From IMG/VR virus record IMGVR_UViG_3300034341_000088, positions 1 to 39,353 of that record: a stretch of 39,353 nucleotides of DNA. One strand, 5' to 3'. The notes beneath the pieces are model-generated. The model was not told where the DNA came from. It did no database searches and saw only the letters and a program-made list of their open reading frames with translations. A program made the position numbers and the translations under genes. Source of the stretch: a virus (Duplodnaviria > Caudoviricetes). Positions 4,665-39,353 of the stretch are shown piece after piece (the first letter of the stretch is position 1; every line of letters begins with the position of its first letter).

Positions 4665-5486
4665 ATGAGTGATATAACAATCATTAACGATACTCAACAA
4701 TCACAGCTAGTAACAAATGGACTTGCTGTAAACGGTGAGTTATATTTAAAAGCAGAGGGCAGTACAGACGAAGGTTCTGTAGTTGTCTACGACAGTGGTT
4801 CTTGGAGAACATTTGCTAACGAAGCTACTGTTGGGTTTCCTAACGGATATAGTGCAAGCTTTGACGGTACTAATGACTATGTAAGTATAAGCTCTTCTAG
4901 TTATTCTATATCTGGGAACAAAAGTTTTTCGACTTGGGTTAAACCTACGTCAGGCTCTTACCACTATCTGTGGGGTTACGGCACAAATTTATATGCTTTG
5001 TATTTGGACTCTTCCGCAGTTTCGATAAGAATGTGGCCCTCCGGTCAAGGCGGAGGATCAGGAAGAACTTATCAACGTATGGTTTCACCAGTAACATTTA
5101 CAAACGGTTCTTGGTACAACATCATCATTACTGGAGACGGAACTGATTTAAAGTTATATGTTAACGGACAAGCCGCAGCGAGTACTTACACAGACAATGA
5201 CGACTGGTATTTCCAAACAGCTTTGAGGGCTGGAAGTTCGGGTTCTTCTTTTGCGGGTCTTGTAGATGAATTTGCGTTTTTTAGTTCTACTTTAAGTAGT
5301 TCGGATGTTAGTTCTATCTACGGAAGCGGTGTACCTTCTAGTCTTTCTTCTTACAATCCACACTTATGGTGGAGAATGGGAGACGACAACTCAGGATCAG
5401 GCACGACAATAACAGATCAAGGAAGCGGTGGAAACCACGGAACTCTTACTAATGGAGCTTCTTTTTCAACTGATGTACCTTCTTAA
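4665..5486 (+). CDS. LamG / concanavalin-A-like lectin domain virion protein
   Basis: SASFDGTNDY, STWVKP, WYNIIIT..G..LKLYVNG, FAGLVDEFAFF..TLS..DV..IY, WWRMGD...TITDQGSGGNHGTL. Confidence 0.8.
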   Translation: MSDITIINDTQQSQLVTNGLAVNGELYLKAEGSTDEGSVVVYDSGSWRTFANEATVGFPNGYSASFDGTNDYVSISSSSYSISGNKSFSTWVKPTSGSYHYLWGYGTNLYALYLDSSAVSIRMWPSGQGGGSGRTYQRMVSPVTFTNGSWYNIIITGDGTDLKLYVNGQAAASTYTDNDDWYFQTALRAGSSGSSFAGLVDEFAFFSSTLSSSDVSSIYGSGVPSSLSSYNPHLWWRMGDDNSGSGTTITDQGSGGNHGTLTNGASFSTDVPS

Positions 5487-7175: not shown

Positions 7176-7373
7176 ATGAGCACGAAAGAGAAAAAAGGTG
7201 ATATGTCATCTATATCTTTTCGTCTCAAACGGTCACAGAAGAAGGATGTGGCTGGCATCGCTAATAAACTCGGTGTCAGCTCATCCGCTCTTTTGAACAC
7301 ATGGATCACTAGGATACTCAATAATATGAACGGACTAGGTGATCACAGTGAAGAAATACCGAGAGATAATTAA
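7176..7373 (+). CDS. Ribbon-helix-helix DNA-binding protein
   Basis: SSISFRL (beta strand) then KKDVAGIANKLGVSSSALLNTWI (two helices with the G-x-S turn). Confidence 0.65.
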   Translation: MSTKEKKGDMSSISFRLKRSQKKDVAGIANKLGVSSSALLNTWITRILNNMNGLGDHSEEIPRDN

Positions 7374-7468: not shown

Positions 7469-7726
7469 ATGCTGAGTCATAAAGAGGGAAGTAAGCTGCA
7501 CGACAAGATTGCAGACGCATATAGGAACAGTATAGATATGATGGACGAACACGGAGAGTACAACGCTGCTCTACTTAACGGTGCTCGTCAGTTCCTTAAA
7601 GATAACAATGTAACTATGGACAGTGGCTTAGGCACACCCTTACAAGCGTTAAACAGTCAGATAGAAGCGTTACCATTTGAAGAAGAACAACAACATCGAG
7701 ATACCACCCAAGCTCAAGGACTTTAG
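7469..7726 (+). CDS. terS: Terminase small subunit (T7 gp18-like)
   Basis: LH...AALLNGARQFLKDNNV...L...LPF pattern; directly upstream of terL. Confidence 0.8.
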   Translation: MLSHKEGSKLHDKIADAYRNSIDMMDEHGEYNAALLNGARQFLKDNNVTMDSGLGTPLQALNSQIEALPFEEEQQHRDTTQAQGL

Positions 7727-9368
7727 AAACTTTCTATACCTAGTTTGGAAGCACCTTAACCTACCAGATCCTACACCGCTTCAATACGATATAGCGGAGT
7801 ATATGCAACACGGTCCGAAGAGATCGTTAATCATGGCGTTCCGTGGTGTAGGTAAGTCCTGGGTGTGTAGTGCCTATGTAGTACATCAACTACTGCTAGA
7901 CCCATCTAAGAACATACTTGTTGTATCAGCCAGTAAGAATAGATCGGATGACTTCTCTACCTTTACTCTTCGGATCATCCAAGAGATTCCCATCCTTCAA
8001 GGATTAAAACCATCTGAGAACCAACGCTTCAGTAAGATAGCTTTTGATGTAGGCCCTGCTCCGGCAGCTCACGCTCCCTCCGTTAAGTCATTAGGTATAA
8101 CATCACAGCTTACAGGTTCTCGTGCTGATATAATCGTAGCAGACGACGTAGAAGTTCCTAATAACTCAGCTACTCAAGGTATGCGGGACAAGCTAGACGA
8201 ACAAGTAAAAGAGTTTGAAGCTATCCTTAAACCCCTAGACACCTCTCGTATCCTCTTCCTAGGTACTCCACAATGTGAAGACTCTATCTATAACAAATTA
8301 AGAGAGAGGGGCTACAACGCTCGTATATGGCCTTCTGAGTATCCTAACGCTAAAGAAGCTAGTTATAACTATGCAGGGGATTTAGCACCCCTTCTAGCGG
8401 ACGCTATAGACGAAGACACTGTAGGTACTACAACAGAACCTCTTAGATTCTCTGACTTAGACCTAGAAGAACGTAAGATGAGTTATGGACGTACAGGATA
8501 CGCCTTACAGTTCATGCTTAATCCTAAGCTATCAGATGCTGATCGATACCCATTAAAGATTAACGATCTTATTATAATGGATATAGATGTAGACTTAGCT
8601 CCTGAAAAAGTAGTGTGGTCCAGTGACGATGATAACACAGACAAAGAGTTACCTAATGTAGGACTTAGTGGAGACCGCTATAGACGACCTTCTAATACTG
8701 TAGGTGATATGATACCTTATACAGGTTCTGTACTCTCTATTGATCCCTCTGGACGTGGTAAGGATGAAACAGGTTATGCAGTAGTTAAGATGCTTAACGG
8801 TCAACTATACGTTCCAGATGCCGGAGGTATAAAAGGAGGCTATGACGAAAAGACATTAAAACATCTAGTCGCTATAGCTAAGGATAACAAAGTTAATAAA
8901 GTAGTTATAGAGTCTAACTTTGGTGACGGTATGTTTATGGAGCTTATAAAGCCGATATTTAGAACAACATATCCTGTAACTATAGAAGAGGTACGTCATA
9001 ATAAACAAAAGGAACTTCGTATAGTAGATACTTTAGAACCAGTTCTTAATAGCCATCGCTTAATCATAGACCCTTCTGTTATAACTTATGATTACAAATC
9101 AGCTCTTACATATCCTATAGAACAACAAACTAGATATATGCTAATGTATCAACTATCTAGGATAACAAGAGATAGAGGTAGCTTAGTTCATGACGACCGT
9201 CTAGATGCTCTATCTATAGCTGTAGCTTATTGGGTAGAACAAATGGCTAATGATGTAGATCAAAGTATGTTAGATCGTAAACAAGAGCTACTACATAAAG
9301 AACTTCAAACGTTTACTGATAGCTTCCATAAGACCAATAACAAAGTTGTAGCTAACCTATGGATGTGA
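7677..9368 (+). CDS. terL: Terminase large subunit (T7 gp19-like)
   Basis: AFRGVGKS Walker A, TGSRADIIVADDVE Walker B, LGTPQ, IDPSGRGKDETG, ESNFGDGM, HDDRLDAL. Confidence 0.97.
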   Translation: MKKNNNIEIPPKLKDFRNFLYLVWKHLNLPDPTPLQYDIAEYMQHGPKRSLIMAFRGVGKSWVCSAYVVHQLLLDPSKNILVVSASKNRSDDFSTFTLRIIQEIPILQGLKPSENQRFSKIAFDVGPAPAAHAPSVKSLGITSQLTGSRADIIVADDVEVPNNSATQGMRDKLDEQVKEFEAILKPLDTSRILFLGTPQCEDSIYNKLRERGYNARIWPSEYPNAKEASYNYAGDLAPLLADAIDEDTVGTTTEPLRFSDLDLEERKMSYGRTGYALQFMLNPKLSDADRYPLKINDLIIMDIDVDLAPEKVVWSSDDDNTDKELPNVGLSGDRYRRPSNTVGDMIPYTGSVLSIDPSGRGKDETGYAVVKMLNGQLYVPDAGGIKGGYDEKTLKHLVAIAKDNKVNKVVIESNFGDGMFMELIKPIFRTTYPVTIEEVRHNKQKELRIVDTLEPVLNSHRLIIDPSVITYDYKSALTYPIEQQTRYMLMYQLSRITRDRGSLVHDDRLDALSIAVAYWVEQMANDVDQSMLDRKQELLHKELQTFTDSFHKTNNKVVANLWM

Positions 9369-9500
9369 GCTGCTCTACTGTTGTAGACACACCTATCCTT
9401 AAAAACGTACGTTATAACGAAACCTTCAATACTTAAAACGTATAAAGCTGTTAGAGGTAACGATTGAAGGAACCAAGTAGCTATAGTAGCTTTACCGTTA

Positions 9501-9623
9501 ACACTGTACTTACGCTGTACTTTCTCTTAAAGAGTTTACGAGCTAATGTACCTTATAGATATAGCTATAGCTTATGAAACATCTAACGAAACGCTGTACT
9601 GACGTTGTACTTACGTAGTACTA
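9501..9623 (+). repeat. Five 11-bp iteron-like repeats (approximately ACGYTGTACTW)
   Basis: acactgtactt, acgctgtactt at 9501-9522; acgctgtactg, acgttgtactt, acgtagtacta at 9591-9623. Confidence 0.8.
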
Positions 9624-9724
9624 ATTATAACGATCTCAAGCCGAAGGAAAATTGTCAACCCTTAAAAGTAAATCACTAAGTAAAAAACTTAATAACTTAT
9701 AACCTAGTACATCGTCTCAACTTT

Positions 9725-9733
9725 TGTTATAGT
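9725..9733 (+). promoter_or_regulatory. Extended -10 promoter candidate
   Basis: TGtTATAGT located 9 nt upstream of the ATG at 9743. Confidence 0.4.
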
Positions 9734-9742
9734 ACAGTCGTT

Positions 9743-9961
9743 ATGGATATAAACGAACAGACAGACACCTTTCAATACGAGCTATTCAAACTTATACATA
9801 GGTTCAAGAATGAATACGATCTTAACGATTACACGATAGCGGGTAGCCTGGACTTCGCTAAGTTGTCTGTACTGACTGAAACAGATGATGTTATCTTTAC
9901 AGGGGACGATACTATATTAGAAGAAGATAACGATACGGACGACCTATCTCCTAACTTCTAA
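9743..9961 (+). CDS. Acidic hypothetical protein
   Basis: 72-aa ORF, D/E-rich C-terminus, upstream promoter candidate. Confidence 0.6.
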   Translation: MDINEQTDTFQYELFKLIHRFKNEYDLNDYTIAGSLDFAKLSVLTETDDVIFTGDDTILEEDNDTDDLSPNF

Positions 9962-10051
9962 AGACGTAGCACAGACGACACACGCACACATTAGGCGAAA
10001 AGTTTCTGAGAAAAAATCTGAGGGGCTTACGCTATATACGCGAGCGTTAAT

Positions 10052-10094
10052 TACCCCCTCGTGTGCCCGCAAGATTCTTATAGGGGAGGGGGTA
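10052..10094. repeat. Inverted repeat in the putative genome-terminus region
   Basis: taccccctc (10052-10060) is the reverse complement of gagggggta (10086-10094). Confidence 0.6.
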
Positions 10095-10126
10095 TTAATT
10101 CGCACTATAGTCATTATGTCTAATAG

Positions 10127-10139
10127 TAAGTACTTGATA
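10127..10139 (-). promoter_or_regulatory. IHF consensus site
   Basis: Minus strand TATCAAGTACTTA matches WATCAANNNNTTR exactly. Confidence 0.55.
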
Positions 10140-10291
10140 GTCAGCACTTTAGTGTTATTCTGTTGTAAATACAGGCAGTTTGACGGCCATTAAATAAGTA
10201 TGGACTTATGTAGTTAGTATAAGTTGTTCGCTTATTGCCAGTAAGTTGCGTTTAGTCGTATATGTGTTTTTCGCTTTCTTGGTTCAGCTTT

Positions 10292-10340
10292 TGTGTCGTT
10301 TTGTCACACTGTGCCGTCACACCTGTGCCATTATGTCACA
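10292..10340. promoter_or_regulatory. Tandem enhancer-like sites (UAS candidates), TGTG-N9-CACA x2
   Basis: tgtgtcgttttgtcaca (10292-10308) and tgtgccattatgtcaca (10324-10340); 14/17 identical, 32 bp apart. Confidence 0.65.
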
Positions 10341-10364
10341 CTTATAATTAGTAGTTTTGTTGAT

Positions 10365-10377
10365 AATCAACGACTTA
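10365..10377 (+). promoter_or_regulatory. IHF consensus site
   Basis: AATCAACGACTTA matches WATCAANNNNTTR exactly, with an AT-rich 5' flank; lies between the UAS candidates and the -24/-12 element. Confidence 0.7.
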
Positions 10378-10391
10378 TGAATCGGTAATAA

Positions 10392-10408
10392 CTGGCACGG
10401 CCTCTGCT
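10392..10408 (+). promoter_or_regulatory. sigma54 (RpoN) -24/-12 promoter
   Basis: CTGGCACGGCCTCTGCT versus consensus YTGGCACGRNNNTTGCW: one mismatch, exact GG-N10-GC spacing. Confidence 0.75.
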
Positions 10409-10477
10409 TAATAGGGGCAGTTCTTTCTCAGTCCTCCGGGACTTCATATAAATAAACCAAACCAATAAATAAATAAT

Positions 10478-10759
10478 ATGAACAACACACAAAACGCTAC
10501 CGCTACGATTAATGACATCATTGCCAAAGTTCGTTCCATGAACGACAAGCTAGACGCTAAGATTAATCAATCAAAGCACGCAAAGATGACTAAGGATTTA
10601 CGCCACATTATGCGTGGCAACCAACCTCAGCCGTCCACCAGTAAAGTGGACATCATTGACGCTCTTAGCGATATACAGAAAGCCTACACCAAAATAGGCC
10701 GGAATATTCCAAACTTCACCGACAGCATGAATTTAATCGGTAAGCCTTATTCTTCTTAA
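10478..10759 (+). CDS. First early protein, hypothetical
   Basis: 93-aa ORF with an A-rich leader, between the sigma54 promoter and a terminator. Confidence 0.7.
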   Translation: MNNTQNATATINDIIAKVRSMNDKLDAKINQSKHAKMTKDLRHIMRGNQPQPSTSKVDIIDALSDIQKAYTKIGRNIPNFTDSMNLIGKPYSS

Positions 10760-10764
10760 CACTA

Positions 10765-10796
10765 GAGCCTCACCTTTAATCGGGTGGGGCTTTTTT
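10765..10796 (+). terminator. Intrinsic terminator
   Basis: gagcctcacct-ttaatc-gggtggggctt followed by a T run. Confidence 0.8.
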
Positions 10797-10847
10797 GTAC
10801 CCAGGTAAATCGCTGTGAATAACTTTTATGATTATGTGTTTGACAGC

Positions 10848-10902
10848 TTACCTGTCCGTATATTTAACCGAGCAATTGACGGGTGCAGTTTACCTGTCCG
10901 TA
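10848..10902 (+). repeat. 13-bp direct repeat ttacctgtccgta x2
   Basis: Exact copies at 10848-10860 and 10890-10902 (42 bp apart), each preceded by TTGAC. Confidence 0.8.
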
Positions 10903-10922
10903 GAAACCAAAAAACCAATAAT

Positions 10923-11087
10923 ATGAAAAAAACTCTATCAATCGTTGTAATAACTGGCGACAATATTCACCATGTCGAACAAATCAAATCAACTCATCCT
11001 TCACCTATTTCGCAAGCTATGGCAAATGTAGCTTATCGATACAGGAAAGCGGGTAAAGGATCACCTACAATCTTAAAAGCTTACTAA
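10923..11087 (+). CDS. Early hypothetical protein
   Basis: ATG at 10923 after an A-rich leader is a more plausible start than GTG at 10815. Confidence 0.55.
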   Translation: MKKTLSIVVITGDNIHHVEQIKSTHPSPISQAMANVAYRYRKAGKGSPTILKAY

Positions 11088-11088
11088 T

Positions 11089-11211
11089 ATGAGAGACAAC
11101 ATGAACAACACCAAACCAACTAAACTTGACCGTATCATCTGTAATTCCTTCCCTTTGTTATATTTAGGGGGATGGGCTGTTGTTGTCCTTTGCATTATCT
11201 TCGGAGCGTAG
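11089..11211 (+). CDS. 40-aa early membrane peptide (absent from ORF track)
   Basis: MRDNMNNTKPTKLDRIICNSFPLLYLGGWAVVVLCIIFGA; abuts the flanking genes. Confidence 0.55.
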   Translation: MRDNMNNTKPTKLDRIICNSFPLLYLGGWAVVVLCIIFGA

Positions 11212-11215
11212 TGAT

Positions 11216-11374
11216 ATGAGAAAAGATTACAACATCATCTGTCTAGATAAGGATGACAAACCGAAACAAGTGGCCACGATAGAATCGGCTAGTCCTGCGA
11301 AAGCGAGGCTTGCGGGTCAACGGCTTGCGACTAGCTTGAACCTTCGTTTCCACTTAGCTAAACCTACTAAATAA
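11216..11374 (+). CDS. Early hypothetical protein
   Basis: MRKDYNIICLD...; tight packing with neighbours. Confidence 0.55.
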   Translation: MRKDYNIICLDKDDKPKQVATIESASPAKARLAGQRLATSLNLRFHLAKPTK

Positions 11375-11376
11375 CC

Positions 11377-11673
11377 ATGTCAGTAACCATCTACCTAACT
11401 GATCATAACGGGCAACAGATAGCGTTCTTCTATAGAATCGAGTCCGAGCGATACAACACCTGTCCGAATATCCTTTGGGCGTGCCGTCAGTACCCTCAGT
11501 TTCAAGGCAGTGCCAGTAGCAAGGGCGACTTCATAGAGCAAGCTAAACAAACGCTCAAAGAAATTAAGAAGCTAAGTGTACCTGTCTGCAAAGATTGTGG
11601 ATTGACAAACCCTAAGCTTGAGTCTCAAGATGCGTGCCCCGAATGCTTAACCGATAAAACTACTACTAAATAA
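11377..11673 (+). CDS. Early protein with C-terminal zinc ribbon
   Basis: CKDC...CPEC. Confidence 0.65.
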   Translation: MSVTIYLTDHNGQQIAFFYRIESERYNTCPNILWACRQYPQFQGSASSKGDFIEQAKQTLKEIKKLSVPVCKDCGLTNPKLESQDACPECLTDKTTTK

Positions 11674-12269
11674 TGAATACTACTACAACATTACCCGACC
11701 AAATCGAGCTATGTTCCTTTCCTTTTCAAGACGAAGGGAAGTGGCACAACGCAACCATATTCTTCTTCACTAATGATACCTACACCATTTATCAGTACGA
11801 AGATCACTACGATATATCTAAGGAAGAAGCAGACAAGTATTGTGACGAGCATGACCAACGTCTTAAAGAATACGATCAGTATGTGTTAGACACAGGTTCT
11901 GACCCATTAGGAAACCATCATGTTGATCGCACCGAAACTAAAAAGAGTGAGGTCAAAGTTCAGTATGGATTATATATTGGAGTAGAAAAGCGAGGTGTAC
12001 AAGTCACACAAGTAGAGTTTGAAGGTGTTACTTACGGACGTTTAGAAATAAATAAACTACCGAGCAAGGTTAAAGATTACCTGCACATAGAATACGCTTA
12101 TTGCCGATACTACTTAGACAGCATACAACGGAAAGATTTATACGACTACGATAATTGCTACGATGTAACGGACAACTCTTTTAAATGCATGATCGAATAC
12201 AAAGTTGATCGTCCGTCGGATGTGGTCGCTTCAGAGTTACGTGCTATTGCTAAAAAATCTTTATTATGA
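11673..12269 (+). CDS. Early hypothetical protein
   Basis: 198-aa ORF, TAATG coupling with the upstream gene. Confidence 0.7.
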   Translation: MNTTTTLPDQIELCSFPFQDEGKWHNATIFFFTNDTYTIYQYEDHYDISKEEADKYCDEHDQRLKEYDQYVLDTGSDPLGNHHVDRTETKKSEVKVQYGLYIGVEKRGVQVTQVEFEGVTYGRLEINKLPSKVKDYLHIEYAYCRYYLDSIQRKDLYDYDNCYDVTDNSFKCMIEYKVDRPSDVVASELRAIAKKSLL

Positions 12270-12481
12270 CAACTGACCCAGAAAACTTACCGAGCTTAGA
12301 TGACGCAAGCATTGACGCTCTTATCCAACATTACCTGTCCTTGAAGCAAAGACTAACCGACAATTTACGTGTCCGTGAAAGACTGGTAGAGCTACAAGAC
12401 GAGCAGTTAAAACGACAGATCGAAGCACTCGGTAATTACGAACCAATCGGTGACGATATAAAGGATCGCTTGAACCAATGA
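12266..12481 (+). CDS. Early hypothetical protein (helical)
   Basis: ATGA overlaps on both sides. Confidence 0.65.
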   Translation: MTTDPENLPSLDDASIDALIQHYLSLKQRLTDNLRVRERLVELQDEQLKRQIEALGNYEPIGDDIKDRLNQ

Positions 12482-12573
12482 CCGAAGGAGAATACATAAT
12501 TATGACAAGCCTTACATTCCTATCTATCATCTTAGTAATAATAATCTTTACAGCTTGGATGTACCGTGATTAA
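12478..12573 (+). CDS. 31-aa early membrane peptide (absent from ORF track)
   Basis: MTEGEYIIMTSLTFLSIILVIIIFTAWMYRD; ATGA overlap with the upstream gene. Confidence 0.6.
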   Translation: MTEGEYIIMTSLTFLSIILVIIIFTAWMYRD

Positions 12574-12811
12574 TACAGGCTTATTTACTACTAACCGATC
12601 TTGGGACATACCCGAAGAGATAAAATATAATAAAATGAACAACTACGACAACTGGCTGAACAGCAACAACCCCATCGATCTTGAACATGAAGAAGAAAGA
12701 AGAGAAGAAGAAAAAAGAGAATTACTACTGGACGATCTTGCGGGTTTTGATACCGAAGAAGAAATCCAAGAGTACCTGTCTGAAAACAACCTTGAAGACC
12801 CAAGAGATTGA
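12566..12811 (+). CDS. Acidic early hypothetical protein
   Basis: E/D-rich ORF; the true start may be the internal ATG (MNNYDNW). Confidence 0.55.
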   Translation: MINTGLFTTNRSWDIPEEIKYNKMNNYDNWLNSNNPIDLEHEEERREEEKRELLLDDLAGFDTEEEIQEYLSENNLEDPRD

Positions 12812-12867
12812 TAAACCGTTCGTAGTGGACGGGCAGTTTTGGGAGGCGGAGAACGACATACTGAGAC

Positions 12868-13116
12868 ATGAGTAAATTTGACATAAACGAGGAGATAACT
12901 GACTGTCCGTTTGATTGGAGTAGTATCGATCATCGAGCTATAGCAGATGGATGGTATCACTTTTGGGGCAACACTCAGATCACTAGCTTTGAGACGGATA
13001 AGAAGGGTAAGTATGTACGGGATGTGGACGGCAAACTAATTGCTCATCGTACTAAAATACCACGCAAGCTACCTCGTACATGGTTCAACAAACAACAAGA
13101 AGGACAAGAATACTGA
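12868..13116 (+). CDS. Early hypothetical protein
   Basis: 82-aa ORF whose TGA overlaps the RNAP ATG (TGATG). Confidence 0.65.
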   Translation: MSKFDINEEITDCPFDWSSIDHRAIADGWYHFWGNTQITSFETDKKGKYVRDVDGKLIAHRTKIPRKLPRTWFNKQQEGQEY

Positions 13117-15467
13117 TGACCGAAGAGAAGAAAACAAAGGGTAAAGCTTGGCGTATGCGTGAGTGGGGACGGACACAATATCGTAACCGACAAGCAAAGC
13201 TAAGGATGGATGGCGAGTCCAGTAAGACCGAAGCATCTAAGCGTATGTTACGGGTCATGGCTCCGAAGTTAGGAAAGAAAGTGGAGGACTTTATAGATAC
13301 CTTTGGTGGCAGTACAGAGCATACGACTCCTTTGTTTCTTACCTTCGTACTTGATATGTGTCCGTACCAAATAGCTAGTCTAGCTCTTCAAACTTTTCTT
13401 GATAACTTACAGTTCAATTTACCGGTGGGTAGGATGGCGTATAAGATAGGCAAAGCTTTCGAGAACCAAGCACGATGGGACAAAGCATTAGATACTATGC
13501 ACCCTAGTAAGCTTGACCTACTGGCTATGGATGACCGCTCTAAAGCGATGAAACTGAAACAGTTCTACGACTACGAAGAGGAACGATTTACACTGTGGGA
13601 CAGCAAGTGCAAGGCGGGTCTAGGTGCTTGGTTGTTAGAGGAAATAAGAATAGAGACTGGCTTATGGGTCATGGACTTTGCTACAGGCAGACAGAAAGGA
13701 CACAAAGCCGAGCGTATTGTCCGTGCGACTAATGAATTTACGGATTGGGTGAGTCGTTTTGATAGTTGGAAGGAGACTACTCGTGTATTTAAGATGGCAC
13801 TACCAGAAGAACCAGTTGATTGGTACGGTTTAGTAGGTGGAGGATACAGCGTTAAACATATGCCACCACAAAAGCTATTCACGGGTAAACCTGTAGCTAA
13901 TTTCAAACCTTACGAGAGTTCTTACCAACACGCCATGTCTGCTCTTAACAAGTTACAGAAGGTAAGCTGGAAAATTAACAAAGAGATTTTAGATATTACT
14001 CTAAAGTGTTGGGAAAACAAACGAGTCATTGGAAACATACCAAACTTTGGTGAGATAGACGAGCAACCTAGATACACTGGTGATTGTCCGCATGAGTTCA
14101 GAGCTTGGAAGTTAAAGCAAAAGGATATTAGAACTGCGAACGAATCAAACAGTAGTAAGAGGTATCAAACCTGTCGTATCTTACACTTAGGCAAAGTATA
14201 TAGTGAGTGGGACAAGTTCTACTTTCCGTATCGTTGTGACTACCGAGGTAGAGTGTACGCTTTACCGTACTACTTACATCCACAAGGCAGTGACTTAGCT
14301 AAGAGTTTGTTAGACTTCAGCAGAGGTGAGCAAGTAGTAGATGAAGATGACCTCATGTCGATATTAGTCCACGGTGCGAACACGTGGGGAGTAAAAGGTA
14401 CACGCGATGAACGTATTGAATGGGTAGGTAAACGACAGAAGTTTATATTGGAGGCAGCGAATGATCCACACGGTACTGACTGGTGGACCGAAGCTAGTGA
14501 TCCGTTCTGTTTCCTACGCTTTTGCTTGGAGTATAAACAGTTTACAGAAGAAGGTTACGGCTATGTTAGTTACCTACCTGTCCGTCAAGATTGTAGTAAC
14601 AACGGTATGCAAATCCTATCGTTATTACTACGGGACAAGGACACAGGTAGGATGTGTAACTTAGTAGATAGAGACAAGGCTAACGATATGTACGCTGAGT
14701 TTGCTGACAGGGTGTACGAAGAACTAAAGAAAGATGGCGGTGTACTGGCCCAGGAGTGGATGAAGTATGGCTTCTCTCGTAAGTTAGCTAAGTTAGCTGT
14801 GATGAATAAACCATACGGAGCTACACATTATAATTTAGTACAAGATATATTTAAAAGTATAGGTATCAATCATCCTTGGACAGGGGTAGGTGAGATGTTA
14901 ACAGCTGTTATCTGGATAAGTAAGATAGTAAATAGATTAGCTAATGAAATGTGCCGGCCCGTTAATCAAGTCATGAAGTTCTTACGTGAAAGCGTACGAG
15001 CTATAGGCTACGATCAACCGATCATTTGGACTACACCTACAGGCTTCAAAGTAATACAAAGTTTTCACAGGTACAAGAAGGTGAATGTAGACTCTGTTTT
15101 TCAAAACCTAAGTATAACTATACAGACTAATGACTTTGAAGATAACATCGACCCGAAGGGACAAACCAATGCAGTCACCGCTAACTTTATACACAGCTTA
15201 GACGCATCAATCGTACATCAAGTTGCAAACTTTGTTGACTTCGATGCTTGTTATATACATGACTGTTTTGTAACACACGCTTGTAACGCCAGAGCTATGA
15301 ACGCAATCGTAAGAAGAACCTACTCTCAAACATTTAACGTTGATCTCCTGACCGAGTTCCGAATGGAGCAAATCAACACCAACCCAGAAGCAGAACTTCC
15401 GTCAGTGCCGGAGCTTGGAGACTTAGATGTCTCTGCAATAACACAGATGAAGTATCTGCTTTCTTAA
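13116..15467 (+). CDS. Single-subunit T7-like DNA-directed RNA polymerase
   Basis: DYRGRVY, PQGSDLAKSLL, motif A QDCSNNGMQ, motif B RKLAKLAVMNKPYG, ANFIHSLDA, motif C IHDCF. Confidence 0.95.
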   Translation: MTEEKKTKGKAWRMREWGRTQYRNRQAKLRMDGESSKTEASKRMLRVMAPKLGKKVEDFIDTFGGSTEHTTPLFLTFVLDMCPYQIASLALQTFLDNLQFNLPVGRMAYKIGKAFENQARWDKALDTMHPSKLDLLAMDDRSKAMKLKQFYDYEEERFTLWDSKCKAGLGAWLLEEIRIETGLWVMDFATGRQKGHKAERIVRATNEFTDWVSRFDSWKETTRVFKMALPEEPVDWYGLVGGGYSVKHMPPQKLFTGKPVANFKPYESSYQHAMSALNKLQKVSWKINKEILDITLKCWENKRVIGNIPNFGEIDEQPRYTGDCPHEFRAWKLKQKDIRTANESNSSKRYQTCRILHLGKVYSEWDKFYFPYRCDYRGRVYALPYYLHPQGSDLAKSLLDFSRGEQVVDEDDLMSILVHGANTWGVKGTRDERIEWVGKRQKFILEAANDPHGTDWWTEASDPFCFLRFCLEYKQFTEEGYGYVSYLPVRQDCSNNGMQILSLLLRDKDTGRMCNLVDRDKANDMYAEFADRVYEELKKDGGVLAQEWMKYGFSRKLAKLAVMNKPYGATHYNLVQDIFKSIGINHPWTGVGEMLTAVIWISKIVNRLANEMCRPVNQVMKFLRESVRAIGYDQPIIWTTPTGFKVIQSFHRYKKVNVDSVFQNLSITIQTNDFEDNIDPKGQTNAVTANFIHSLDASIVHQVANFVDFDACYIHDCFVTHACNARAMNAIVRRTYSQTFNVDLLTEFRMEQINTNPEAELPSVPELGDLDVSAITQMKYLLS

Positions 15468-35811: not shown

Positions 35812-38800
35812 ATGGCACTTCCCGAAGACCAGCAGCCCGTAGAGGACGAAAACGATTTCTTTGATTACGCATCAGATGCTTTAATGGGTATACCCAGAGG
35901 TGTAGAAGGTGCAGTGCAAGGTGCTTACAACTTAGCTGATTACTTAGCTTTTGACTCACTTCCTGATTACGATACTCGTTTCCTTGGTACTTCTAAGACT
36001 TTAGCTGGCGGTCTTGTAGAAGGTGTTACTCAGTTTGCTACAGGTTTTATTCCTGTTTTTGGAGCTGCTGGCAGGGTGGGTGCGTTAGCTAAAGCAGGTA
36101 CTGCTGCTAAAGCTGTCACCGCTGGTGCTATTACCGACTTCACATTTTTTAACGGACAAGAAGCTAGGCTATCTAATCTTATACAGCAATACCCAGCTTT
36201 ACAGAATCCTGTTAATGAGTTCCTCGCACACGATGCAGATGAAGGAGAGATTGAAGGACGTTTAAAGAATGTCTTGGAAGGGTTAGGTATTGAAGCTGTA
36301 GCTGGTGTGTTTATCAGTGGGCTTAAAGGTGTTAAGAAAGTACGAGACATACGAAACAACGGAGGAACTCCAGAAGAAGCAGCAGCAGCTGCGGATGAAG
36401 TCTTTCAAGGTGGTCGAGTGTTTGTTGACGATGAAGCACAGATAGCTGCTAGAAGACAGATGGAAGAAGACGAAGCTGCCTTACTAGAAGGCGGTATAGA
36501 AGTTGGTGATATTCCAGAGGTTGATCTTAGTAAAGTTAACTGGGACGAGGTAGATTTAGAAGATGTAGCGGAAGTTGCTCCTCGGTTATCAAGAGAAGAA
36601 TTAGAAACGCTTGAAGCTGGTGGTAAGTTAATCAGTGAACAAACTACTAGTACTGGTATAGTTAAAACTTACGAATTACCTAGTGGCAGTAAGCGTACTG
36701 TTATGGTTGATGTTAATGACCCAGAACGAGTCATAGCAGCTGATGTTGCATTCGCTCCTAAAATGGCAGCAGATTTAGATGCGACCTACGGAAAAATAAG
36801 TGCAGGTTTAAAGAAAGAATTTTACGATAAGACATTAGTTGAGGAAGTTTCAAATCGTATGCAGACCGGGAAACCGATGACTGCTCGTGAAGCTATTCAA
36901 GACCTATCTGATAGAACAAATGGAAACTTAGGTGAATATAGTCCTGTTGTTAAAAGGTTGTTAGAGTTAGGAAAAGAAACTGGTATAGACGCTAGAATTG
37001 AAGAAAGGTCTTTTGCTAGTAATTTACCTGAAGCAGTTTCAAAAATAAAAGGATCGTTTTACGACGCAGCAGGACGACGTATAGTACTAGATGCACAAGA
37101 TTCCTCAGTAAAAAACAACCCAGTATATAACTTACTACACGAATCGACACACGCTGTAACAGTTGATAACGTAAGTAAGCATTACGATAGAAATGTGTTT
37201 GATGGTATTGAGATAGAGGATGTAGCTGGTAGAGCTGCTTTTGTTGACAACGTATTAAAACAAAAAGACTTACCTAAACCAATCGCAGAAATGTTCCGTA
37301 TGTTTAAGAAAGCGGACGGTATGCGTGATGAGATTGCATCTAAAGGTAAGCTCGTTAACACAAAGGGTGAATCTGATCTATACTGGATTAAGAACCCAAT
37401 GGAGTTTATGTCTATGGCCTTCTCTGACCCACAACTACAAAGAGCATTAAAGGGTATTCAGTATACTCCGAAGATGACTATGTGGGAAAAGGTTGTTAAT
37501 ACAGTTAAAAGTTTCTTTGGTAAAGGAGTAAGCACAGACTTAGCTGATAACATCGTTAGTCGTGTGGGTGAGATAGCACAGATGAAACTGCCAAGTAGAA
37601 AAGGTAAGGGTGTTTCTATGTTGCCTGAAGAAGAAGCTAGGGGTGTACCGAAGTTTGATCCTAAGAAACCTAATGAGTTCCTTGATTCTGTACCTGAGAA
37701 GTTCCGTGGATACGCTGATGAATTACTTAAAGGTGGTACACCTAGGCTTCCACAGTTTGCATTAGAAACAGGCGATGATGTTGTTGTACTCAAAAATTTA
37801 CTGGAAAGTTACTACAAAGAAAACCCTGATAAGATCACAGTACAAGGAGCAGTAACCGAAGTAGGAGAAGAGATTGAAAAGCAATTAATGCTACAACAAG
37901 GTAAGGATACTGCTACTAAGATCGCTGAAGCACGTGTAATACAACAAAGCTTAAGAGACCAAGGAGCGGCTGTTATCAACAACTTAACTGAATCTATAAG
38001 AAAGTACGACGATGCTGACGGGAGTGGTGTAGCAGTAGCTGAGATAAAGAACAACTTTCAACAACTACTTAGTGTAGCTGATGTATATAGGCAATTAGGT
38101 AGGGAAGGTAGTTTACTTTTAGGTGCTAGAAGAGAAAACTACGGAAGTAGTAAGATAGGTCTTAGTGAATCTGATTTTAAAATAGAAGGTATACGTAAAG
38201 AGTTTGCTAACGCTTCTGGTTCCGATCCTAAAAAGATGGTTAATATTATCAAAGAGAACATCGACGAAAACGATCCTGAAGCTACGTTTAATAAACTATT
38301 TAAGGTATCCAAACAAGCACAAGGTAAAAACTTCTTAGATATGCCTACTGAGTATTGGATGAATGCTATACTTAGTGGACCTAAAACCCAAGTAGTCAAT
38401 GCGATGGGTAACAGTCTTACTCAGATATGGTCTTCTATTGAGTCTGTCTTAGGCGGCATAGCAAGCGGTAATATGGATGTTGTACGTGCTGTTATGGCTT
38501 CTTGGTCAGATAAAGAAATGTTTAAGGAGGCTGGTAAATTTGCTAAGAAAGCTTTTAAACAATCCGATAATGTCTTAGACCCAGAAGCTCGTGCATTTAG
38601 TGATCGTCCATCTGTAGCTATAACAGGTAAAAGAGTATCTGAAGCTTTGCCTGGACAAGGATTATCAATCAAGCAAGAACAAGGTTTAGATTGGTTTGCT
38701 AATAATGTTATAAGAATACCAAGTCGTTTGTTGATGACCACTGATGAGTTCTTTAAACAGTTAGCTTATCGTAGAGCGGCTCGATTAAAAGCAGCTATGT

Positions 38801-39353
38801 CTGGTATACAGCAAGGAGTAAATGATCCTAAGAACCTAGCAGAATATATAAATAAAACATTAGACGGTGTTATTACTCAAGGAGGACGCATGGCTTCTAA
38901 GGAAGGACTTGCTAGAGAAGCTAATGAAATAGCAGTTACAAAAGGAATTAAAGATACTACAGAAAAGAATAAATTTATATTGGATTACGTAGAAAAGAAC
39001 TTTGATGAAGATAAGTCTGCACTTATACAATATGCACAAGAAGAAGCTAGGTATCTTACTTTTACAAAAGAATTAGAAGAAGGTATAGGTAAAACAATGC
39101 AGGACTTTACTAACAGGCATCCTGGTTTTCGTTTCATATTACCGTTTGTTAGAACTCCAACCAACATTCTTACCTTTGCTATAGAACGTACTCCACTGAT
39201 GGTTAATCCATTAATGAAGCAAGAGTTTGCTATATTACGAAAAGAGTTTGCTAGTGCCGATCCTATTGTAAAAGCACAAGCTAGGGGTAAAGTAGTAACG
39301 GCTGGTTTAGTTGCTCTTGGATTAGCGGAGGGGGTAAACGACTCTAACGGAGG
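35812..39353 (+). CDS. Large internal virion protein D (T7 gp16-like), about 1508 aa with the 1..1061 part; contains an HExxH motif
   Basis: ATG at 35812 (MALPEDQQ...). Frame checked at several points (LHESTH 37135-37152, junction); it also reads LMTTDEFFK and PFVRTPTN. Absent from the ORF track, presumably because there is no stop inside the window. Confidence 0.85.
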   Translation, partial: MALPEDQQPVEDENDFFDYASDALMGIPRGVEGAVQGAYNLADYLAFDSLPDYDTRFLGTSKTLAGGLVEGVTQFATGFIPVFGAAGRVGALAKAGTAAKAVTAGAITDFTFFNGQEARLSNLIQQYPALQNPVNEFLAHDADEGEIEGRLKNVLEGLGIEAVAGVFISGLKGVKKVRDIRNNGGTPEEAAAAADEVFQGGRVFVDDEAQIAARRQMEEDEAALLEGGIEVGDIPEVDLSKVNWDEVDLEDVAEVAPRLSREELETLEAGGKLISEQTTSTGIVKTYELPSGSKRTVMVDVNDPERVIAADVAFAPKMAADLDATYGKISAGLKKEFYDKTLVEEVSNRMQTGKPMTAREAIQDLSDRTNGNLGEYSPVVKRLLELGKETGIDARIEERSFASNLPEAVSKIKGSFYDAAGRRIVLDAQDSSVKNNPVYNLLHESTHAVTVDNVSKHYDRNVFDGIEIEDVAGRAAFVDNVLKQKDLPKPIAEMFRMFKKADGMRDEIASKGKLVNTKGESDLYWIKNPMEFMSMAFSDPQLQRALKGIQYTPKMTMWEKVVNTVKSFFGKGVSTDLADNIVSRVGEIAQMKLPSRKGKGVSMLPEEEARGVPKFDPKKPNEFLDSVPEKFRGYADELLKGGTPRLPQFALETGDDVVVLKNLLESYYKENPDKITVQGAVTEVGEEIEKQLMLQQGKDTATKIAEARVIQQSLRDQGAAVINNLTESIRKYDDADGSGVAVAEIKNNFQQLLSVADVYRQLGREGSLLLGARRENYGSSKIGLSESDFKIEGIRKEFANASGSDPKKMVNIIKENIDENDPEATFNKLFKVSKQAQGKNFLDMPTEYWMNAILSGPKTQVVNAMGNSLTQIWSSIESVLGGIASGNMDVVRAVMASWSDKEMFKEAGKFAKKAFKQSDNVLDPEARAFSDRPSVAITGKRVSEALPGQGLSIKQEQGLDWFANNVIRIPSRLLMTTDEFFKQLAYRRAARLKAAMSGIQQGVNDPKNLAEYINKTLDGVITQGGRMASKEGLAREANEIAVTKGIKDTTEKNKFILDYVEKNFDEDKSALIQYAQEEARYLTFTKELEEGIGKTMQDFTNRHPGFRFILPFVRTPTNILTFAIERTPLMVNPLMKQEFAILRKEFASADPIVKAQARGKVVTAGLVALGLAEGVNDSNG

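Follow-up and report, generated by a model that had tools for sequence, protein, structure and literature searches.

The window analyzed here is a stretch of 39,353 nucleotides (IMG/VR record IMGVR_UViG_3300034341_000088; Caudoviricetes) that holds a T7-like phage genome with a single-subunit RNA polymerase gene at 13080-15467 and terL at 7677-9368. The single-subunit polymerase, together with T7-type replication and structural genes lying on one strand, places the phage among the Autographiviridae-like viruses. The closest annotated terL is that of MedDCM-OCT-S45-C18 (66% identical), and the public runs in which at least half of the region is present come from seawater or marine metagenomes. 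Because the contig ends (1-72 and 39282-39353) overlap by about 70 nt, the contig is circularly permuted, with the permutation point inside a large internal-virion gene starting at 35812 (35812-39353). A search of Rfam over 9300-13200 gave no matches. The features between terL and the early genes are given below, where type A denotes the cassette form found in the window.

10010..10110, no strand assigned: conserved block in the terL-early region interval, used as BLAST anchor across terL relatives
10292..10308, no strand assigned: enhancer dyad 1, TGTGTCGTTTTGTCACA, of the form TGTGNC-N5-GTCACA, starting 101 nt 5' of TGGCA (92 nt in L092/L151)
10310..10321, no strand assigned: third palindrome, spacer-less, TGTG(C/A)CGTCACA, near-invariant in seven of seven aligned copies
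10324..10340, no strand assigned: enhancer dyad 2, TGTGCCATTATGTCACA, starting 69 nt 5' of TGGCA
10365..10377, plus strand: IHF consensus AATCAACGACTTA, with a conserved T-rich 5' flank
10392..10408, plus strand: sigma54 -24/-12 box CTGGCACGGCCTCTGCT, unique in the genome, with GGCA and TGCT invariant and the inner bases variable
10420..10430, plus strand: boxA-like leader GTTCTTTCTCA, covering transcript positions +2 to +12 (predicted +1 at 10419)
10478..10759, plus strand: ORF1, 93 aa, helical, with the family motif LxxIM...K(V/A)DI(I/V)(D/E)(A/V)L
10764..10796, plus strand: intrinsic terminator-like hairpin with a U tail, present in type A copies, L094 and L083
10814..10905, plus strand: second promoter-like element, comprising TGTGAATAA, TTGACA (10840-10845) and two copies of TACCTGTCC (10849 and 10891), with no clear -10

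The conserved block is probably a terminal repeat or genome end; a 78-nt contig covering 10010-10087 in run X5 had a depth of 1909, compared with about 45 in its flanks.

The first-pass annotation had read 10292-10408 as a sigma54 promoter served by two upstream dyads and an IHF site, and all of its motif coordinates are correct on the sequence; the third palindrome, which is perfect in L082/L084, and the leader were missing from its list. The -24 GG and -12 GC elements are separated by the 10 nt expected of a sigma54 promoter, and this spacing is conserved. The dyad centres lie at -119 and -87 from the predicted +1, within the range of about 80-150 nt expected of enhancers, and are likewise conserved, and in type A the IHF site falls between enhancer and box. 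The pattern TGGCAC-N6-TGC occurs once in 39 kb, against 0.1 expected from 100 Markov simulations, and TGTG-N9-CACA occurs at three places (six counts on both strands, against 0.88 expected), the third of which, at 4969, is intragenic. The IHF consensus by itself is not rare, with seven sites found against 3.2 expected. Scoring with an RpoN weight matrix had been proposed as a check, and with matrices built from 14 host heat-shock promoters the two phage dyads scored 25.8 and 22.2 bits, ahead of every other site (next 8.2), and the phage box, at 20.3 bits, likewise led the genome (next 11.1); this ranking is partly circular because a phage-derived pattern had served to find 10 of the 14 training promoters.

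Scanning viral contigs with a motif pattern returned 20 loci, of which 15 were real cassettes, some of them duplicates, and five were rejected as chance matches inside genes of unrelated phages. The alignment of seven type-A copies shows little or no variation in the half-sites, the middle palindrome, the IHF site, GGCA and TGCT, while the spacers and inner box bases vary. Such fixed boxes with variable inner bases indicate that the proposed enhancer-IHF-sigma54 layout is under selection. The alignment of relatives suggested by the first-pass annotation also found the spacing conserved, with offsets of -101, -69 and -28 from TGGCA; in L092/L151 all three elements lie 9 nt closer to the box, a shift of about one helical turn. 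The IHF site has at most one mismatch in 11 of 13 type-A rows, being degenerate in L231 and falling in missing upstream DNA in L165.

Other cassettes carry different upstream arrays. In type B, four to six copies of TGTATA-N5-TATACA directly abut the sigma54 box (L085/L054, L094/L077, L299, L292, L296, L297, L300); no IHF site was seen between array and box, and most copies share the type-A leader. L296 and L300 have three type B sigma54 promoters each, one of them 3' of the first terminator, and in L292/L296/L297/L300 the type B promoters precede differing first genes. A type C cassette (L083, 2870-3060) has TAGGTA...TTCCTA repeats, a sigma54 box and the same leader before a different first gene, and sits downstream of a related terL. 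In L011 (7060-7421; same contig as L087 and L291), type A and type B promoters stand in tandem before the first gene.

These comparisons bear on a reading in which a phage or host repressor uses the palindromes as operators next to a sigma70 promoter, with the sigma54-like box being incidental. Such a reading could draw on TATAAT at 10343-10348, on a weak CopG-like repressor match at 7176-7373 (E 4e-4) and on the abundance of the IHF consensus in the genome, but the TATAAT, which the first-pass annotation had itself offered as the sigma70 alternative, persists in only one of seven aligned copies, three distinct upstream arrays all retain the same GG-N10-GC box and leader, and the dyad-to-box spacing recurs at bacterial hsp20 genes. 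We consider it highly improbable; the unit is very likely a functional sigma54 promoter. As previously noted for this genome, the phage has no activator of its own, since the sigma54-activator domain (PF00158) was found neither in the genome nor among its 48 ORFs. The conserved sigma54/IHF/enhancer unit in a phage without a bacterial enhancer-binding protein (bEBP) therefore points to an rpoN-containing host with a cognate activator, which supports the host prediction made earlier.

The predicted transcript starts with the boxA-like sequence AGUUCUUUCUCA. All three cassette types (A, B and C) carry the same leader sequence, and its position slides by 3 nt in L011 and L181, for which reason it is likely an RNA element. 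Its sequence fits the boxA core G(T/C)TCTTT-NN-NA and matches the Legionella CRISPR boxA at eight of 11 bases and the rRNA-leader site of L399 at nine of 11. The small hairpin that follows it (10430-10443) is not conserved across cassette types. ORF1 belongs to a family of 48 protein clusters, which were aligned, and no convincing match was obtained for it in Pfam, PHROG, PDB or Foldseek: no Pfam family was common to more than six of 36 members, no PDB sequence match fell below E 0.019 and no Foldseek match below E 3, and an Atlas feature search gave nothing usable. Its predicted structure has a mean pLDDT of 79 and a pTM of 0.38, and our guess is that it may be a small helical host-interference protein. 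The hairpin after ORF1 (-21.8 kcal/mol, z -4.3, U6 tail) bears out the terminator that had been proposed to close the first transcript.

The second promoter-like element is conserved behind type A cassettes and in L054, and from TTGACA onwards it is the sole element before the first gene in the cassette-less L025/L026; a promoter scan did not detect the element at 10840. In L077, a sister-type sigma70-like site lies 3' of the cassette. The sequence TGTGAATAA (10814-10822) is conserved directly behind the terminator in type A copies and resembles the DnaA-box consensus. The 9-mer TACCTGTCC, present in the window at 10849, 10891, 12332 and 14575, is polar: early-side DNA (119 kb, early regions of L001-L080) has 83 copies on the plus strand and none on the minus strand, and late-side DNA (400 kb) has none on the plus strand and five on the minus strand. 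It was found in 34 of 35 relatives with at least 2 kb of early DNA, is often intragenic and, given its place on the DNA that enters first, may be a Chi-like or another orientation-dependent signal of the host.

The occurrence of the unit in sister phages was surveyed in 81 sequences (80 terL relatives and the window), anchored by BLAST on the conserved block, with 33 sequences excluded because the anchor block was missing (21) or too little downstream DNA was present (12). The sigma54 cassette is present in nine of the 48 informative sequences (six type A, two type B, one both) and absent in 39, and after merging near-identical slots it occupies seven of 41 distinct slots. ORF1 lies 3' of the cassette in eight of the nine carriers, the contig of the ninth ending there, and in none of the 39 non-carriers. 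On a terL tree the seven carriers require seven changes, no fewer than with shuffled labels, gain and loss being indistinguishable because the tree is quick and unrooted; L001, with the cassette, and L003, without it, have identical terL over the aligned part. Many cassette-less sisters, not all of them classified, show sigma70-like promoters in the slot, and sister-phage promoters fit TTG(C/A)-N16/17 types. The best explanation for this distribution is that the unit is an optional, exchangeable one-gene cassette heading the early region. Among the cassette-less phages, L003, L008-L010, L013, L014, L018, L022, L068, L072 and L074 have a sigma70-like TTGC(A/T)(A/T)-N13-TG(G/T/A)CA with an unusual -10, CAnnn(T/G/C), in some cases 8-11 nt 5' of the start codon.

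The first-pass annotation had also suggested looking for the phage dyad upstream of bacterial sigma54 promoters, and it was found there at hsp20, clpB and dnaK, as a 17-bp palindrome of the form TGTGNCA-N3-TGNCACA. When metagenome contigs were searched for a dyad lying 35-65 nt 5' of a sigma54 box, at least 119 loci were obtained, and the matches listed were dereplicated to at least 75 clusters: one is this phage family, one is a repeat (18 members, without a downstream gene) that was set aside, and 73 are others. Among the matches listed, dyad and sigma54 box precede hsp20, clpB or dnaK in 10 of the 73 other clusters and two more are probably chaperone-associated; 61 to 63 of the 73 are not heat-shock genes, and chaperone genes are the largest named class. 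Chaperone calls were made by Pfam, NCBIfam or tblastx; Pfam was run on 65 of 104 extracted downstream ORFs, chosen by eye so as to omit those of this phage family, those of the repeat and those of matches that seemed to lie within genes. The dyad of L090 is identical in every base to the one preceding hsp20 in L194, from which dyad 2 of the window differs by one base.

In the phylum of G102, both pattern matches in 35 genomes are hsp20 promoters, and a gene-first survey found dyad and box at four of 30 hsp20 loci compared with none of 20 control loci, three of the four dyads lying at -69 to -71 from TGGCA, as in the phage; within the fetched flanks, the combination was absent from 26 of the 30 hsp20 and from all 30 dnaK loci. 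The pattern occurs in one of 401 genomes of G001's phylum, and a narrower pattern in none of 151 genomes of G526's phylum. The two genomes with the hsp20-promoter matches of G102's phylum, G129 and G130, contain 95 and 63 sigma54-like matches, respectively. Of 21 viral matches, 10 belong to this family and six of the other 11 (four distinct) precede hsp20. Other phage or phage-like contigs (L276/L284/L288, L278, L286, L289/L227 and L219) carry their own hsp20 behind dyad and sigma54 box; no annotated phage yielded a match to the phage hsp20, which has two homologues. One such contig, G527 (114 kb), encodes an ECF sigma factor and has numerous sugar-nucleotide genes, and it matches the Akkermansia Amuc_1098 family weakly, with a score below the cut-off.

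Since the same palindrome and sigma54 box precede bacterial chaperone genes, the activator is likely a host bEBP that responds to protein stress, and a heat-shock-type activator is the reading we favor with reasonable confidence. Alternatively, the promoter may work with an autoregulated NtrC-family response regulator (AtoC/ZraR-like) that answers another signal and shares the TGT-N11-ACA format. Among the matches listed, two-component genes lie downstream in six of the 73 clusters (L174, L210, L213, L224, L230 and L241), where dyad and sigma54 box precede kinase or NtrC-family regulator genes, and these regulators are candidates for autoregulated activators. The proteins of L224 and L213 score best, though below the cut-off, against AtoC, NtrC and ZraR, and a comparison of the L224 helix-turn-helix with the bEBPs of G129, G130 and G526 found generic similarity only. 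According to the accessible text of PMC4641369, TGT...ACA half-sites serve several unrelated bEBPs, and TGT-N11-ACA is common to several of them. Against these points, chaperone genes outnumber any other named class among the matches listed, the L090 dyad is the one found before hsp20 in L194, and other phages pair the box with hsp20; a response regulator with a different signal is thus unlikely, and there would be no conflict between the two readings if a regulator of this kind were the heat-shock activator.

Under the favored reading, host sigma54 polymerase would sit as a closed complex on 10392-10408 once this end of the genome is inside the cell, the three palindromes would be occupied by stress-bEBP dimers, and IHF at 10365-10377 would loop them onto the polymerase. 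Transcription would start near 10419, the boxA-like site may load NusB/S10, and the transcript would span ORF1 and end at 10764-10796. Transcription of the phage RNA polymerase gene and the other early genes would probably begin at the element at 10840. Synthesis of ORF1 would thus take place in cells where protein stress already exists or is brought on by infection. RNA runs X16, X17 and X19 were set aside as evidence of expression or transcription start, given that their assembled contigs cover upstream non-coding DNA too. As a whole, it seems somewhat more probable than not that an optional, exchangeable cassette lets a host protein-stress activator, helped by IHF, switch on ORF1.

The first-pass annotation had proposed that the first transcript is gated by a host signal-responsive activator. 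The match between enhancer and chaperone box agrees with such an activator; a gate on the infection is too strong, being weakened by the optional nature of the unit (seven of 41 slots), the conserved terminator and the independent element behind it. Because the terminator is conserved and the TTGACA element stands alone in L025/L026, the cassette is most likely an add-on that controls one small gene and not the whole early programme. In the contrary reading, Nus factors loaded at boxA, possibly assisted by ORF1 as an N-like cofactor, let transcription pass the terminator and reach the RNA polymerase gene, and infection proceeds only in stressed hosts. The invariant boxA-like site (+2 to +12) with the hairpin behind it, the fact that the cassette takes the place of the first promoter of sister phages, and the three sigma54 promoters of L296 and L300, one behind the first terminator, would suit it. 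The terminator is nevertheless strong as well as conserved, a promoter-like element follows it and L077 has a sigma70-like site there, and the hairpin after boxA varies across cassette types. Moreover, rRNA-type antitermination acts mainly on Rho-dependent stops, which also argues against this reading. Some read-through into the early genes may occur, and a gate on the whole infection is quite unlikely.

A broader but doubtful interpretation is that the clade keeps interchangeable sensors of host state in the first-promoter slot, with boxA read-through, so that sister virions hedge over the state of the host. The sensors would then be the type A heat-shock enhancer, types B and C, the stacked form of L011 and the plain sigma70-like promoters, swapped between near-identical genomes, a scheme we regard as improbable.

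Several indirect hints suggest a host that is poor in Shine-Dalgarno sites and non-proteobacterial. Such sites precede only eight of 42 plus-strand ORFs, the upstream DNA being A-rich; the best-matching hsp20 box, that of L194, has a DUF1501 gene next to it; the weak Amuc_1098-like match occurs in a further phage that carries the box; and the sister promoters are unlike the Bacteroidota -7 box. Verrucomicrobiota is our guess for the host, with about even chances of being right. Marine Verrucomicrobia carry podoviruses (PMC4611503; PMC3861242), and the accessible text of neither source links them to this clade. The best capsid match in named genomes (65%) pointed to a Gammaproteobacteria-titled metagenome-assembled genome, which was rejected as host: 30 of its 37 sigma54-like sites were examined and showed no type-A dyad, and its single dyad, before an Fe-S scaffold-like gene, had no sigma54 box in sight. 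Tandem dyads were found in none of 101 genomes of its order. A search of 37 loci found no tRNA, and for the Verrucomicrobia LexA box there was no matching site in the window and single-mismatch matches occurred in five of 81 sequences.

The T7 early promoters A1-A3 are the textbook case of constitutive sigma70 promoters. As in T7, a host-polymerase promoter lies here at the first-entering end, before small host-interference genes and the phage RNA polymerase; unlike in T7, the unit is predicted to depend on an activator, has its own terminator and occurs in a minority of sisters. NifA-type upstream activating sequences have the form TGT-N10-ACA, and no such site occurs in 10292-10408, the phage dyads being TGT-N11-ACA. 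The PEP-CTERM (PrsR) box is also a 17-nt motif, often repeated and placed tens of bases 5' of a sigma54 box, but it ends in TTTACA and, in the accessible text of PMC1569441, is reported only for Proteobacteria; the phage dyads lack that ending and have GTCACA (type A) or TATACA (type B). The leader shares with the boxA/NusB-S10 elements of rRNA and CRISPR leaders a GTTCTTT core and an 11-nt element near the 5' end of the transcript, and differs from them, as far as the available text of PMC7862264 describes them, in ending with CTCA, starting at +2 and preceding a short protein gene and an intrinsic terminator.

Among phages, Pseudomonas phage YuA has a sigma54-like promoter, P015 (PMC10914365, citing Ceyssens 2008), and is likewise a lytic phage with a host sigma54-type promoter beside sigma70-type ones. 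YuA is not T7-like, and the accessible text describes no enhancer, IHF site, activator or exchange for it. In Flavobacterium psychrophilum, sigma54 (SM4) promoters precede groES-EL, dnaK, grpE-dnaJ, htpG, lon and clpB (PMC9723704), and sigma54 control of chaperone genes is enriched in Planctomycetota and Bacteroidota (PMC12316311). Both cases place chaperone genes under sigma54, with a bEBP not identified in the text available; no upstream box is described in that text, and here the promoter precedes a phage gene of no known family. The sister-phage promoters (TTG(C/A)-N16/17) do not fit the Bacteroidota TAnnTTTG box as it appears in the accessible sources. Phage proteins, and not promoters, that resemble sigma54 or bEBPs are the subject of PMC7693777 and the Htm preprint, to judge from their accessible parts. 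In the main texts of the open-access literature, supplements aside, no T7-like phage with a full enhancer-IHF-sigma54 unit and no type-A box was reported, and YuA was the only phage sigma54 promoter found.

The box marks a sigma54 heat-shock regulon outside the Proteobacteria for which the activator appears to be unidentified in the literature found, and the triple site of the phage offers a ready bait to pull this activator down. Besides, the box gives a way to trace, from sequence, the host of a phage group that has no cultured members. Taken together, if the proposed reading is true, a widespread marine clade would add a stress-activator promoter to its first gene and swap the enhancer between sisters, and lytic-type phages would read the state of their host through swappable cis modules.
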